9,869 nt of DNA from Promethearchaeota archaeon (GTDB taxonomy: Archaea; Asgardarchaeota; Thorarchaeia; Thorarchaeales; Thorarchaeaceae): positions 851-10,719 of the forward strand of contig JALVPN010000167.1 of the NCBI GenBank assembly GCA_027031765.1, given 5' to 3'. Below are positions 5,208 through 9,869 of the stretch, piece by piece. The notes beneath the pieces were generated by a model. It searched no databases. It worked only from the letters and a program-made list of their open reading frames with translations, and was not told the DNA's origin. Both the position numbers and the translations under genes were made by a program. Every line of letters begins with the position of its first letter. The stretch's first letter is position 1.

Positions 5208-5759
5208 CTAGAACCCTGTTGCTGGGTCAAGGCCGAAGGCCCGTCTGGTCAGCGCGCCTGTACTCATGCCGCTGAGGACGTACCACGACCAGTAGTAGAG
5301 ACCAAACCCACCCTGGACACGCGTACCAATCCAGCCATCGAAGAACCAGAACACCTCGTGGATGTTGAAGGGTAGTATGGCCACTGGGGTCGTCCCAAAG
5401 ATGTTGGCGAGCAGCGTGAAGACGACCATGAATGGTATCAGGAAGATGAGGTACGGCTTGCAACGCGACCCCGCAATCTCGACATTCATGCGCACGATGC
5501 GTGGCTGTTCTGCCATCAGCTCCTCCATCAGTTCTGCCCTCTCCGGTGTGTCGGGCATCCGCATTGCCCGCATCTGCTTCTCACGCCAGTCCTTGATCTC
5601 TTCTATGTACCCACGCATCTTCTCGACGTCTGTGAGCTTCAGTGTCGCCACGGTCAACAGCAAGGACAGGACCGTGTTCACCGTGAAGACGAACAGTGCC
5701 GACCATGGCATTCGGGTGAGGACGGAGAGTGCGGCATAGAGGTCACTGAACAGATCCAT
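5208..5759 (-). CDS. DUF106 / EMC3-TMCO1-like Oxa1-superfamily membrane protein (183 aa)
   Basis: Topology TM1, then a cytoplasmic coiled coil (DVEKMRGYIEEIKDWREKQMRAM...ELMAEQ), KPYLIFLIPF TM2, and YWSWYVLSGMS TM3, matching DUF106. Start ATG 5759 (MDLFSDL) with GAGGG upstream. Confidence 0.85.
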   Translation of the reverse strand: MDLFSDLYAALSVLTRMPWSALFVFTVNTVLSLLLTVATLKLTDVEKMRGYIEEIKDWREKQMRAMRMPDTPERAELMEELMAEQPRIVRMNVEIAGSRCKPYLIFLIPFMVVFTLLANIFGTTPVAILPFNIHEVFWFFDGWIGTRVQGGFGLYYWSWYVLSGMSTGALTRRAFGLDPATGF

Positions 5760-5800
5760 TTGTCTTTCCCTCTCAGGTGCACCCCGCCACTCGCCATCGG

Positions 5801-5808
5801 AATTTAAG
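5801..5808 (-). promoter_or_regulatory. Putative TATA box of the DUF106 gene
   Basis: The minus strand reads CTTAAATT about 42 nt upstream of ATG 5759. Confidence 0.4.
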
Positions 5809-6186
5809 CCTGTTGGGGCTCTGTCAGTACCCGGACCGGCCACTGGTCACCTGCCGATGGCGGCACCCCCTTTTGCAGCGGTGTGTGGTCGAGACGTTTA
5901 CGTGACACCGGACTGGACACGCTGTCCCCGCCGTCAGGCATGGTGCGGGCTAGCCACCGACCACAACGTCCACAGGCTGACACGGAGTACACGTTGCTTT
6001 TCTGCCGGACCTGTGTGAGTACACGTATACTACGTGCAGGCCCCGCTGACATTACCGTCCGGGTACACGCTGACCGTTTCGCGCCAAACACAGGACGATA
6101 AGTCCACGTCTGTGACGCTATTTTTCCCTAAGTGCAGCAGAATGGGGTACCGGCGGTCACTTCGTGCAGCAACAACAGCCTGCGGT

Positions 6187-6201
6187 TATACAAGTTGTAT
6201 A
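6187..6201. promoter_or_regulatory. Perfect dyad TATACAA-G-TTGTATA, putative operator
   Basis: 7-bp perfect inverted repeat with a 1-nt spacer, AT-rich in a GC-rich background, about 50 bp upstream of the TATA box at 6251. Confidence 0.5.
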
Positions 6202-6250
6202 TCGCTGTGGGCAGCGGGTAGCAAACGTGTACTGACGGGGACCTGCTGGG

Positions 6251-6258
6251 TTTATATT
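6251..6258 (+). promoter_or_regulatory. TATA box of the 90-aa gene
   Basis: TTTATATT, a canonical archaeal TATA, 50 nt upstream of ATG 6308; a GGAGG Shine-Dalgarno-like site lies at 6293-6297. Confidence 0.6.
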
Positions 6259-6307
6259 GCGGTCAACGTGTACTCATCCAAGTCTGCCGCCGGGAGGGCA
6301 AGACACG

Positions 6308-6580
6308 ATGATGATGTTCACACGGATGCTGCGAAGACAGGGATTCTACCGGGTAAAGAACCAGAATGAACCAGTGTTCATGAAACACAATGTCGGACTG
6401 GGTGGCGTCTACGTCCATATCCAGGGGAACAAGGCGCGTCTCATAGTCCGTGACCTTGGGATTGAACAGGAGTTCACCCGGGTCAAGAGGCTTGAGAACT
6501 ATATCAAAGAACTCGATGAACGCGAGTACCGTCAACGATGTCTCTACCTGCACAGGATGCGCAGGGGCACTGGTCAATAG
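6308..6580 (+). CDS. Small hypothetical protein (~90 aa), alpha/beta
   Basis: MMMFTRMLRRQGFYRVKNQNEPVFMKHNVGLGGVYVHIQG.... It has TATA, SD and terminator signals and coding-like codon usage. The start could be ATG 6308, 6311 or 6314. Confidence 0.85.
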   Translation: MMMFTRMLRRQGFYRVKNQNEPVFMKHNVGLGGVYVHIQGNKARLIVRDLGIEQEFTRVKRLENYIKELDEREYRQRCLYLHRMRRGTGQ

Positions 6581-6625
6581 CATGAGGTGCGGTGCGCTCG
6601 GGGTGGGTCGGGCACAGTGTCCCTT

Positions 6626-6674
6626 GAGGGCAGGCCCGGCCACCCCGGGTCGCCCTCCTGTTCTCTTTTTTTTT
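6626..6674 (+). terminator. GC hairpin followed by an oligo-T tract
   Basis: GAGGGC (6626-6631) pairs with GCCCTC (6652-6657), and inner CCCGG (6635-6639) pairs with CCGGG (6645-6649). These are followed by TTCTC and T9 (6666-6674), 46 nt after the stop at 6580. Confidence 0.7.
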
Positions 6675-6832
6675 CCCTGTACTGTCTAGTGTATGTGGCT
6701 GAGGACTAGGTCCAGTGGTGCTGTGACCGCGTCACGGCGGCCGGACATCTGATGTGTGTGCCGTTCCTGACCGGCTGCACTGACAGGGGGTGCCAGTCTG
6801 GAGAGAAGGAGTTGCTGGCAAGGCCCTTCCGC

Positions 6833-7390
6833 TCAAGTACGCATTGCCAGCTCTCGTACAGTCCTACTAGAGAGCTGCCTGTGCGACTTCTGCTCGTAGC
6901 TCACCTGCACCATGTAGATCATGGCCTCAAGACCAAGGTGTGCACAGGCTAGGGCTACAGCACTGCCCGACTGTCCGGCACCGGTCTCGGTGGTGTAGCC
7001 CTCTGCTACCTCCTTGGACGCATAGTACGTCTGTGCTAGGCCGTGTTCAGCTTGTGGGAGCCGGTGGGCGACACGTCCTCGCGCTTGAAGTAGACCAGCG
7101 CGGGGGTCTTCAGGTACTCCTCAGCCGACATGCCCGTTGGAACGGTGTGGGACGACCATACTTCGCATGTGTCTCACGCACATCCTCTGGCACCGGATCC
7201 TCCGCTCTGTGGACACCTCCTGTGCCACACACTCTCGGGGGAACAGTGCTATGAGCGCCTCCGGTGCCACTGGCCTGTCAGCTCCGGGCTCCAGTGGCGA
7301 GGGGAGCGGCTCCTTGAGGAACGGCAGCATGTTGACATACTCCTTCGGGATGTCGTCCACCTCGAGGAGGACTCGCGCATCACTGTTCAT
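6833..7390 (-). pseudogene. trpB2: Tryptophan synthase beta chain 2 (TrpB2) pseudogene, N-terminal ~180 codons only
   Basis: Reconstructed across three -1 frameshifts (~7195, ~7123, ~7038): MNSDARVLLEVDDIPKEYVNMLPFLKEPLPSPLEPG...[77 protein letters not shown]...TTETGAGQSGSAVALACAHLGLEAMIYMVQVSYEQK. It contains the TrpB2 N-terminus, the PLP-lysine motif GSHKxN and TETGAGQ. Homology ends near 6870, with a stop at 6833. GGAGG lies upstream of ATG 7390. Confidence 0.9.
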
Positions 7391-8011
7391 GATAGCCCCC
7401 TCCCCGGTCGGTGACAGGACACACCAGTGTTGTCCCACGGCCGGGACATGGTGCCCTGCTGTCGTGCTGGTCTTATGGGCCCAGCCCAGTATACGCTCCT
7501 GCGGAAACGTCAGTCTGTGAGAAGGGCAAGCCGGGACTCTTCGCAAGAGCCGTGTCCACAAGAATGCTCGGACGGGTCTCTGAGGGCCCTACTCCCATTG
7601 GTAGTTACACACGCTCGTTGCGACACTTCACCTCAGGTGTGGTGTGGGCCGACGACCACTCCACCCACCCATAGACGATACTCACTGGTAGACCTGTAGA
7701 TACACATGTGTACACCGTCGGACGGTCGTATCGTCCGGCATGACCGTGGTCACCGGTCTTCCTACAGACGGCAGACGCGGCGCTACTCGTGGTCACTACT
7801 GGACAGCGCCCTGATGGTTGGCACACCCTCAACACACGTGTCGCCCGGGGACGACGCTGAGTCTCGTCTCTGCAGTACCGCCACAGTACCACAGATGTCG
7901 AGTCCTTCCGACCAGCCTTACGGCAAGCGGTATGACAGTACCGCGTACTATGGACTGGTGCCCTGTACTCTGAGTGGCCGCTATCCTTGGCCGCAGGGAC
8001 TGGGATGGGGC

Positions 8012-9214
8012 CTATCGTCTGAGCCGGGCACGTAGGTAGGCGGGTGCGATGCGCAGGAGCGTGCGTAGGACTCCTCTCTGACCGGTGAGCATCTCGGCCA
8101 CGGCACGCAGGTGGCTGGGTGAACGTACAATGGCATCGCCTACGGTGGAGGAGCCACTGCTGAGGAGTCGGCGCTGTAGCCACAGGCCCCACTTGAGGTC
8201 GCTACCCATCATGGCCTTCCACTTGGTCTCGTACCACCTGAGTCCTGCAGCTCTTGTGTTCCCATGACTGAGGGCACGCACGGCGCCCTCGCCCGCAACA
8301 GTACCTCCAACCATGGAGTAGTAGATCCCCTCACCTGTTATGGGCGAGCAGTGGCAGGCCGCATCACCTGCCAGCAGGACGCGGTCCGCAAAGGACGGGG
8401 TCACGACGCCTGCGAGTGGTACCAGTGCAGCCTCTCTCCCGAGTACCGGGGCGTTGCCGTACTCGCTCCTGACCGGCTCCGTGTCATGCAGCAGGTGCGC
8501 CAAGTAGCCGTACATATCGGCGCGTTCTTCCCTCACCCTGCTGACAAGGCCACCAGTCCCCACGACCACCTCGGACTCACGTGGGAACACCCAGGCGTAG
8601 CCACTTGGAGAGAACTCGTGGCCATAGAAGAAGTCCACCGAGTGACGTGGGGTCTGTCCCTCCGGGCTGCCGAGGATGTACTGCACTGCGTACCCCATCC
8701 TGTCTGTCGGGACCCGCTCCCTCACAAGTCCACACCGCAGGGCCACCGCATTCACACCACTGGCATCTATGACCAGCTCCGCAGTCACCACCTCCGTTTC
8801 GTCACCGCGTCCGAGGATGGCCTTGCAGCCTGTACCGTCAATTGTGAGCCGTCGGACACGGACGCCGGTCTCCACGTTCCTGTCCGCGCCTGGAATCCTC
8901 TCCAAGAAGGCCCTCGCAAGGTCTTCGCGCCGCATGTCGACGCCGATGGGACTGTCGAACTCCACTTCGACGAGCTCCATGCCGGGGAACTTCATCCGGA
9001 CCCGGTCTATCGGGTGGGCCGTCGGGGGCACCGGGATGTCGGCCTCACTGAACACGCGTGCTGGCACGAACCCCCCACACGGCTTGTCACGACCAGGTAC
9101 TGGTGACCGGTCGACAAGCAGGTAGTCAACACCATGCCTGTCCAGCACCATTGCGGCAGAGAGCCCTGCTGGGCCCGCCCCGATGACGAGGACTTCAAGG
9201 TCTGGTCTGACCAT
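8012..9214 (-). CDS. Geranylgeranyl reductase family FAD-dependent oxidoreductase (DGGGPL reductase-like), 400 aa
   Basis: Motifs VLVIGAGPAGLSAA (FAD binding), KPCGG, SPSGYAWVFP (GGR PxxYxWxFP), VLLAGDAA and PITGEGIYYSM. Probable start ATG 9214 (MVRPDLEV). Confidence 0.9.
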   Translation of the reverse strand: MVRPDLEVLVIGAGPAGLSAAMVLDRHGVDYLLVDRSPVPGRDKPCGGFVPARVFSEADIPVPPTAHPIDRVRMKFPGMELVEVEFDSPIGVDMRREDLARAFLERIPGADRNVETGVRVRRLTIDGTGCKAILGRGDETEVVTAELVIDASGVNAVALRCGLVRERVPTDRMGYAVQYILGSPEGQTPRHSVDFFYGHEFSPSGYAWVFPRESEVVVGTGGLVSRVREERADMYGYLAHLLHDTEPVRSEYGNAPVLGREAALVPLAGVVTPSFADRVLLAGDAACHCSPITGEGIYYSMVGGTVAGEGAVRALSHGNTRAAGLRWYETKWKAMMGSDLKWGLWLQRRLLSSGSSTVGDAIVRSPSHLRAVAEMLTGQRGVLRTLLRIAPAYLRARLRR

Positions 9215-9236
9215 AGCGCCCTGGGTCGTACTCGTA

Positions 9237-9244
9237 TCTATTAA
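9237..9244 (-). promoter_or_regulatory. Putative TATA box of the GGR gene
   Basis: The minus strand reads TTAATAGA about 22 nt upstream of ATG 9214, consistent with a leaderless or short-leader transcript. Confidence 0.45.
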
Positions 9245-9459
9245 CATTCGTGCCCAACCTGTCCGCAGGCCCTATCGCTCTGTTCGTGGTCAGGATGCCC
9301 CCTGTGTGTGTTGAAGAGGCACGGCGTACTCCTCCCGACTCGGAGTGGGTGGCTGTCCCCAGTCTGCGCCCCAGTAGCACAGGCAACTTGGACTGAGCAG
9401 TTGGGGCGGAGTGCTGACACAGGACGACCTGGACATGTCCTCTGTCCCGCCGACGCACA

Positions 9460-9828
9460 GTACACGCAGCTCTCAGATTCAGCCTTATTCCGTGGTGCAA
9501 CGTGTACCCGTGACCTCGGCGTACACGCATGGATGGGATAGTTACCGCGATAACTGCGTGTGGATTCGGCTGGTGGTCGGTACACGCATGTGGTACACGC
9601 TAGTCTACATACCTCTCATGAGTAAACGTTTACCGCCAACGGTACACGCTAGAGGTGGCGCACGACGGCGGGCCTGAATGGCACACGAAAAATATCGAGT
9701 ACACGTTGCTCTTTCCTAACTATGGTAACGTGTACTTTCGACCCGTCCGAGTCGCCCGCACACGTGCGGCCCACAGCTACTGGTGTGGCTACCAGTTATC
9801 GTGTCCGCACCGTAGTGGCGTACACGTT
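9460..9828. repeat. Cluster B: ~60-bp-periodic array of the (R)GTACACGYW motif (9 exact copies plus variants)
   Basis: GTACACG at 9460, 9521, 9580, 9593, 9642, 9699 and 9820; CGTGTAC at 9501 and 9729; one-mismatch variants at 9622/9627, 9681, 9758 and 9800. Confidence 0.9.
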
Positions 9829-9869
9829 TGCCTGTTCTCGACCCCATCTGCGAGGTCCCCGGCCCCCGG

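Follow-up and report, generated by a model that had tools for sequence, protein, structure and literature searches.

The window, by which we mean the whole stretch of 9,869 nt analysed here (G000:C167:851-10719), belongs to an assembly of 2.95 Mb in 229 contigs with 59% GC, and its last base, 9869, is the end of the contig. Independent Logan contigs of one hydrothermal vent metagenome run (X1), probably from the source sample, likewise stop at 9869, and no overlap was found between the end of C167 and any other contig end of the assembly. The locus comprises a YidC/EMC3-like gene, a small gene encoding a basic protein of 90 amino acids and a gene of the geranylgeranyl-reductase family, together with two clusters of a short box, one between the first two genes (the sister cluster) and one upstream of the reductase gene (the array). 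The features are as follows:

5208 to 5843, minus strand: YidC/EMC3-like gene, bordering the sister cluster
5987 to 6071, plus strand: three forward boxes of the sister cluster (5987, 6019 and 6063)
6077 to 6088, no strand assigned: E2F-like palindrome TTTCGCGCCAAA, a second conserved element
6224 to 6232, minus strand: box 25 nt ahead of the small-gene TATA box, a position kept in 20 of 21 loci
6251 to 6258, plus strand: TATA box TTTATATT of the small gene, conserved family-wide
6265 to 6273, minus strand: box starting 16 nt past the TATA start, in the interval between TATA box and expected transcription start, as in 21 of 21 loci
6287 to 6298, plus strand: conserved leader CCGCCGGGAGGG, including a Shine-Dalgarno sequence
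6308 to 6580, plus strand: gene for the 90-aa basic protein, without Pfam or NCBIfam family
8012 to 9247, minus strand: geranylgeranyl-reductase-family FAD oxidoreductase gene, downstream of the array
9236 to 9245, minus strand: putative AT-rich TATA-like element of the reductase gene, ~20 nt ahead of the probable start; AAGATTATTAG in relatives
9460 to 9468, plus strand: box GTACACGCA of the reductase-upstream array, pointing away from the gene, i.e. CGTGTAC when read towards it
9499 to 9507, minus strand: box GTACACGTT of the same array
9521 to 9529, plus strand: box GTACACGCA of the same array
9580 to 9588, plus strand: box GTACACGCA of the same array
9593 to 9601, plus strand: box GTACACGCT, outside the 60-bp lattice
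9622 to 9633, no strand assigned: palindromic double box GTAAACGTTTAC, A-variant
9642 to 9650, plus strand: box GTACACGCT of the array
9699 to 9707, plus strand: box GTACACGTT, overlapping the 12-mer GAGTACACGTTG at 9697
9727 to 9735, minus strand: box GTACACGTT of the array
9758 to 9764, plus strand: degenerate copy GCACACG with one mismatch, of uncertain membership
9820 to 9828, plus strand: box GTACACGTT, the last ahead of the contig end

A short box enriched in two intergenic regions

The motif GTACACG occurs 15 times in the window, compared with 1.78 ± 1.28 copies expected from 200 dinucleotide shuffles, none of which reached 15, and the over-representation claimed by the first-pass annotation is thereby upheld. 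Nine copies lie at 9460-9826, five at 5987-6273 and the remaining one inside a gene. All exact copies were found where that annotation had placed them, with forward copies at 9460, 9521, 9580, 9593, 9642, 9699 and 9820, reverse copies at 9501 and 9729 and the one-mismatch GCACACG at 9758, as well as a second cluster at 5987, 6019 and 6063 on the plus strand and at 6226 and 6267 on the minus strand. The flanking bases it reported were recovered too, Y then W following 14 of 14 copies and R preceding 12 of 14. The full box has the consensus aGTA(C/A)ACG(Y)(W) and a length of 7-11 bp. Its GTAAACG variant, which is absent from the first-pass annotation and includes the perfect palindrome GTAAACGTTTAC at 9622-9633, adds boxes to the array at 9460-9828 and brings it to a total of 11 over 370 bp.

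The array is not a tandem duplication, Tandem Repeats Finder returning no result for it, and no box-specific tandem or direct-repeat family longer than ~12 bp was found; one 12-mer, GAGTACACGTTG, is identical at 5985, 6264 (reverse complement) and 9697. The ORFs inside 9198-9867 have no Pfam family, which agrees with the earlier reading that no credible ORF covers the array, and this check of them against Pfam gave no sign of a decayed gene. At the DNA level the array had no match in 40 relatives, and a literature search with the motif and 'archaea' returned incidental primer matches only.

Genome-wide, GTAMACGYW is present in 149 copies, 23 of which are outside long ORFs, and 16 of these 23 non-coding copies fall in the two intergenic regions of the window, in keeping with the intergenic enrichment proposed at first reading. 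Clusters of at least three GTACACG copies exist at four places in the genome, two of them being the clusters in the window; the other two are in coding DNA, in what we read from the translation as purine-synthesis genes, and look like chance.

Conservation at two promoters across genera

In all related genera mapped, with genome GC contents of 37-61%, the same boxes are present at the same two promoters, and the gene order YidC-like gene, small gene, reductase gene recurs in the loci fetched from related genera. GTA(C/A)ACG boxes thus persist at orthologous promoters, the reductase orthologues concerned being 45-50% identical, although the DNA of the array itself cannot be aligned in the 40 relatives. 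A metagenome scan for closer relatives gave a best identity of 51-54%; metagenome orthologues of the reductase carry 4-10 boxes within 500 bp upstream, and none was seen upstream of reductase paralogues (≤33% identity) among the metagenome contigs. Direct box pairs were detected in 48 of 61 family genomes (122 pairs), and around nine in ten of these, counted by eye, are on contigs that carry these genes. In the well-assembled genomes G041, G075 and G049, all direct box pairs of each genome are at this locus. Palindromic double boxes, ACGTGTAC-TA-GTACACGT in relatives and GTAAACGTTTAC here, have two-fold symmetry and would fit a dimeric binder.

Genome G019, from a different genus, has five extra, dispersed modules of 60 bp (L046-L050), at C5:22.3 kb, C6:51.3 and 89.5 kb, and C8:54.8 and 59.7 kb. 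Each is made of three boxes about two helical turns apart, in the order CGTGTACTAG, ~8 nt, CATACGTGTACTAG, 10 nt, CTAGTACACGT. Their intergenic locations are unrelated, convergent genes flank at least two of the modules, and no similarity extends beyond the boxes; the neighbouring genes, among them those for a C-5 DNA methylase, an acyl-CoA synthetase and an aminotransferase, are likewise unrelated. One further module site of this type was found in a related genome.

Promoter geometry of the small gene and its product

The footprint of the small gene reads, in order, box, ~18 nt, TTTATATT, ~8 nt, second box and leader CCGCCGGGAGGG, so that two direct boxes, 40-41 bp apart, flank the TATA box. 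Over 21 loci, the first base of the TATA box is 56-62 nt ahead of the small-gene ATG, the downstream box begins 15-16 nt past the TATA start (21/21) and the upstream box begins 24-25 nt ahead of it (20/21). Given that archaeal transcription starts ~25 nt past the TATA box, the downstream box would span about -14 to -8, a position classical for repressors. The leader is nearly invariant in the 21 loci despite the range of genome GC (37-61%), and CCGCCGGGA strings resembling it recur within the reductase-upstream arrays of some relatives.

The 90-aa protein contains 19 K/R and 9 D/E residues, as counted from its sequence. In 47 of 60 family genomes it is present as a single copy, with 59-77% identity and mostly beside the reductase gene, and it is better conserved than the neighbouring enzyme, its first 17 residues being invariant in eight genera. 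Homologues with the N-terminal signature MF.(R/K).LRR are found in at least eight further Asgard families, and in several of these families their promoters lack boxes, which implies that the boxes are younger than the protein. The source names of its homologues assign the present genome to Thorarchaeota. No family was assigned by Pfam or NCBIfam, nothing above 0.81 came from a language-model atlas, and Foldseek gave nothing at E≤0.001 against the PDB. Its structure was modelled (pLDDT 76) as an alpha-beta4-alpha sandwich, for which the top matches, the C-terminus of Mediator Med17 and frataxin, have Z≤8.6 and are at the noise level of the search; Atlas and VIA-align produced generic alpha/beta sandwiches only, with no classical DNA-binding fold among them.

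The reductase gene and the neighbourhood

The reductase gene at 8012-9247 scores 174 bits for TIGR02032 (cut-off 159), and almost every family genome has one orthologue at 39-50% identity. The ATG at 9215-9217 is its more probable start, since alignments with orthologues begin at residue 11-16. At least five relatives have a box 13-19 nt ahead of a AAGATTATTAG-like TATA element of the reductase gene, with more boxes behind. Unlike in these relatives, the nearest box in this genome is ~190 bp from the putative TATA element, and the array here may act at a distance or may serve a promoter past the contig end. At the distal end of the reductase-upstream region, ATTACAAGGTNCAATATAC is conserved ~25 nt from a box in six loci (L028, L029, L032, L040, L041 and L043). 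Read on the other strand, it resembles a second, divergent TATA promoter with an equal box-to-TATA distance; the equivalent position in this genome would be past the contig end.

Between the small gene and the reductase gene, ~1.4 kb (6590-8035) has no long ORF and shows overlapping plus-strand ORFs in shifting frames only. About half of the relatives have a HEAT-repeat gene of ~450 aa behind the small gene at this place, and 6590-8035 is probably the remnant of a frameshifted HEAT-repeat gene, or reflects indel errors at 7-9x coverage. A suspected likeness of 7121-7561 (minus strand) to a TrpB-type N-terminus received no support from Pfam or a genome search. No regulator gene conserved beside the locus was found among the relatives mapped. 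A 115-aa conserved protein encoded next to one of the G019 modules, which we read as winged-helix from its sequence, was dropped as a candidate binder because no boxes precede its orthologue in this genome, and a gene between the small gene and the reductase gene of G019, in our own reading a Tfx-like HTH gene, is missing from the locus in the other mapped relatives.

An E2F-like site as a second conserved element

The sister cluster is accompanied by an E2F-like palindrome, TTTSGCGCSAAA, at 6077-6088, ~230 bp upstream of the small gene. Full E2F-like sites are also present at G000:C145:2936 and G000:C226:18414; these three are the only non-coding ones in this genome, and each is 150-230 bp ahead of a TATA box and an ORF without a family. 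Of 21 family loci, 17 have the core GGCGCS in the 330 bp ahead of the small gene, where shuffles gave a mean of 2.1 and a maximum of 7; among 14 loci from further Asgard families it precedes the gene in 5 (shuffles: mean 0.6, maximum 4). TTSGCGCSAA outnumbered its reversed control in G041 (11 vs 2), G019 (12 vs 1) and G075 (7 vs 3); no enrichment over this control was seen in G049 or G009.

A candidate protein for this site is encoded on contig C211 (L069:1144-1704, minus strand). The 186 aa of this protein include an E2F/DP winged-helix domain (PF02319, 36-37 bits vs a cut-off of 25.7) and, as read from its sequence, an RRVYD motif followed by a coiled coil; we take RRVYD to be the DNA-recognition motif RRxYD of E2F/DP proteins. 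The PF02319 domain was detected in 48 of 101 sampled Asgard genomes and in none of 14 control genomes. The 186-aa protein and the site TTTCGCGCCAAA make up a putative factor-site pair that can be tested. According to a review, Asgard homologues of E2F have already been reported; no target site for them came to light in it (PMC7617429).

Helical phasing of the boxes

The ~60-bp lattice described at first reading is present in the window, where six of the seven exact forward copies are within 2.5 bp of it; a 20-bp lattice fits equally. When copies were placed at random 5000 times, six of seven fell on some lattice with a period of 40-90 bp in 0.2% of cases; the test is post hoc, having been made once the pattern had been noticed. 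The finer claim of a ~10-bp lattice fared differently in the two data sets. In the window by itself it is not significant, the power at 10.0 bp being 2.4 and 7% of shuffles matching the best period, and it does hold in the relatives, with a period of 10.4 bp (0/2000 shuffles). The 10.4-bp peak in the periodogram of same-strand box spacings has a power of 17.4 vs a null 99th percentile of 9.5, for reductase-upstream arrays only, from 10 genera with one genome each, statistics that overstate independence since the arrays of related genomes are partly inherited from a common ancestor.

Same-strand spacings in the relatives cluster at 20, 29-30, 40, 49-50, 60-63, 70-71 and 80-83 bp. These many spacings imply that the unit is the helical turn and not 60 bp, and the 60-bp period is thus a multiple of the helical repeat in one genome rather than a conserved unit. 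Spacings that range over 20-83 bp at a 10.4-bp period do not support the 60-bp unit of archaeal histones.

Interpretation of the array

The features by which an operator array would be recognised, namely a motif over-represented in upstream non-coding DNA, conserved at orthologous promoters across genera and fixed in position relative to the core promoter, were observed directly, as were its restriction to two promoters and its helical phasing, and the array looks functional. We consider it likely that the array consists of operator boxes for one sequence-specific factor which co-regulates the small basic-protein gene and the reductase-family gene. The protein-loading platform envisaged by the first-pass annotation survives in this form, as a homotypic, promoter-associated cluster of short boxes that are putatively bound by protein and share one helical face. 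In archaea, a protein bound between the TATA box and the start site blocks the recruitment of RNA polymerase; for this reason a factor on the downstream box of the small gene, in the TATA-to-start interval, would most likely repress it. At the reductase gene, 4-11 boxes at whole helical turns would favour cooperative binding to a single face of the DNA, which could thereby be bent, wrapped or looped. Counting against the operator model are the lack of a regulator conserved beside the locus and the ~190-bp gap to the reductase TATA element, and the G019 modules between convergent genes are not accounted for by a pure promoter-operator model.

The 90-aa protein may itself be the binder, forming an oligomer that would repress its own and the reductase promoter. 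This special case of the operator model draws on the very basic character of the protein, on its high conservation as a single-copy gene whose own TATA box is flanked by boxes, and on a local regulon of the kind typical for a regulator encoded on the spot. We nevertheless rate it as rather unlikely: the predicted fold is of no classical DNA-binding type and gave noise-level matches only, and the family is present in Asgard families whose promoters lack the boxes. A bolder extension, to which we attach little probability, would see in the boxes the loading array of a novel Asgard DNA-binding protein, for which the 90-aa protein would be a candidate, that polymerises on phased sites into a wrapped complex; in the G019 modules the system would then serve another purpose, architectural or insulating.

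The 10.4-bp phasing and the size of the arrays, which reach 11 boxes, could also point to an architectural platform, on which a nucleoid protein wraps the phased boxes and so organises or insulates the chromosome locally, the association with promoters being secondary. The 60-bp modules of G019, which share no common gene function and in some cases are between convergent genes, are consistent with such a role. In most genomes, however, the boxes are found only at two promoters and at fixed distances from the TATA box, and one or two sites are too few to organise a 3-Mb chromosome; we regard this explanation as quite unlikely.

It is highly improbable that the boxes, as non-canonical elements, form a secondary replication origin or a centromere-like partition site, possibilities of the kind raised at first reading. 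The intergenic region is long, and the sister cluster has inverted arms (+++ then --) around 160 bp of slightly lower GC. The inverted arms are, however, accounted for by promoter geometry; the dip is mild (52-55% between the arms vs ~60% nearby) and includes the TATA box, and any AT-rich unwinding element there would not be a marked one. Canonical ORB boxes lie elsewhere, beside orc1/cdc6 and PolD on C190, where an ORB-type TTCCACTGGAAC pair at C190:2690-2740, between orc1/cdc6 and the PolD small-subunit gene (PolD-DP1), is likely to be the chromosomal origin; the boxes of the array are unrelated to TTCCACTGGAAC. Both orc1/cdc6 genes of this genome are on contigs other than C167, and in relatives the distance from the locus to each orc1/cdc6 gene is ~500 kb in G075 and 250-290 kb in G041 (250-550 kb overall), with another contig involved in G019. 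The centromere-like reading is further opposed by a syntenic chromosomal locus, flanked by the YidC/EMC3-like gene, the small gene, the HEAT-repeat gene (in about half of the relatives) and the reductase gene, and no initiator or partition ATPase gene, nor any ParA/SegA-like gene, was present among the genes mapped at this locus in the relatives.

The idea of a processed RNA array or a structured non-coding RNA with minimal repeats, suggested by the regular interspacing and unrelated spacers in this genome, is barely credible, given that the repeats measure 7-11 bp, that boxes are on both strands and flank a TATA box, one being upstream of it, that the spacing differs among genera, that the fold z-scores for 9450-9869 are -1.0 on both strands and that Rfam gave no match at E≤1. 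A scan for tRNA and tmRNA found none, and the spacers, for which a viral or mobile-element source had been contemplated, matched nothing in phage or plasmid collections, nor did the array as a whole show similarity to a mobile element there.

Few cis-regulatory elements have been defined in Asgard archaea, which are not yet genetically tractable. Here, a box of 8-11 bp is kept family-wide at essentially two promoters per genome while GC drifts between 37 and 61%. The array offers a ready bait for a Thorarchaeota regulator in DNA pull-down experiments, and it provides a functional link between an uncharacterised, widespread Asgard protein and a geranylgeranyl-reductase paralogue, the latter probably being involved in isoprenoid or lipid saturation.

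Comparison with known systems

Among systems that resemble the array in part, CRISPR arrays share the ~60-bp period and the unrelated spacers, in this one genome. CRISPR direct repeats are 24-48 bp long, share one orientation and alternate with spacers of constant length, whereas the repeat here is 7-11 bp, is found in both orientations and has a period that differs among relatives. Iterons and plasmid centromeres, and the archaeal SegB/AspA system, likewise use phased short direct repeats to load a small basic protein; unlike these, the present locus is chromosomal and syntenic across the family, with no partition ATPase or replication gene among the genes mapped. ORB and mini-ORB elements of Orc1/Cdc6 are similar in being repeated short boxes, partly inverted, in a long intergenic region, but the boxes of the array flank a TATA box and have no linked initiator gene.

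Other parallels are transcriptional. TrmB/TrmBL1 (the Thermococcales glycolytic motif), MDR1, LrpA and Phr act as repressors by binding the interval between TATA box and start. As in the TrmB/TrmBL1 type, where a site just past the TATA box blocks recruitment of the polymerase and one ahead of BRE/TATA can have an activating or assisting role, boxes are found here on both sides of a TATA box; the differences are another motif, a regulon of two promoters instead of a whole pathway, and sites that are multimerised. In Saccharolobus solfataricus, the control region of the Ss-LrpB gene contains three boxes at regular intervals, which Ss-LrpB binds cooperatively, wrapping the DNA. Both operators have copies in promoter regions at whole helical turns, around four turns apart for Ss-LrpB and 40-41 bp at the small gene, a spacing that implies cooperative binding on one face. 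The present boxes differ from those of Ss-LrpB in being 7-11 bp long and mostly non-palindromic, in numbering up to 11 over 370 bp and in that no Lrp-family gene adjoins those of the array. The array is of a known kind, a phased homotypic operator cluster, with a new motif, and is not a new kind of genetic element.
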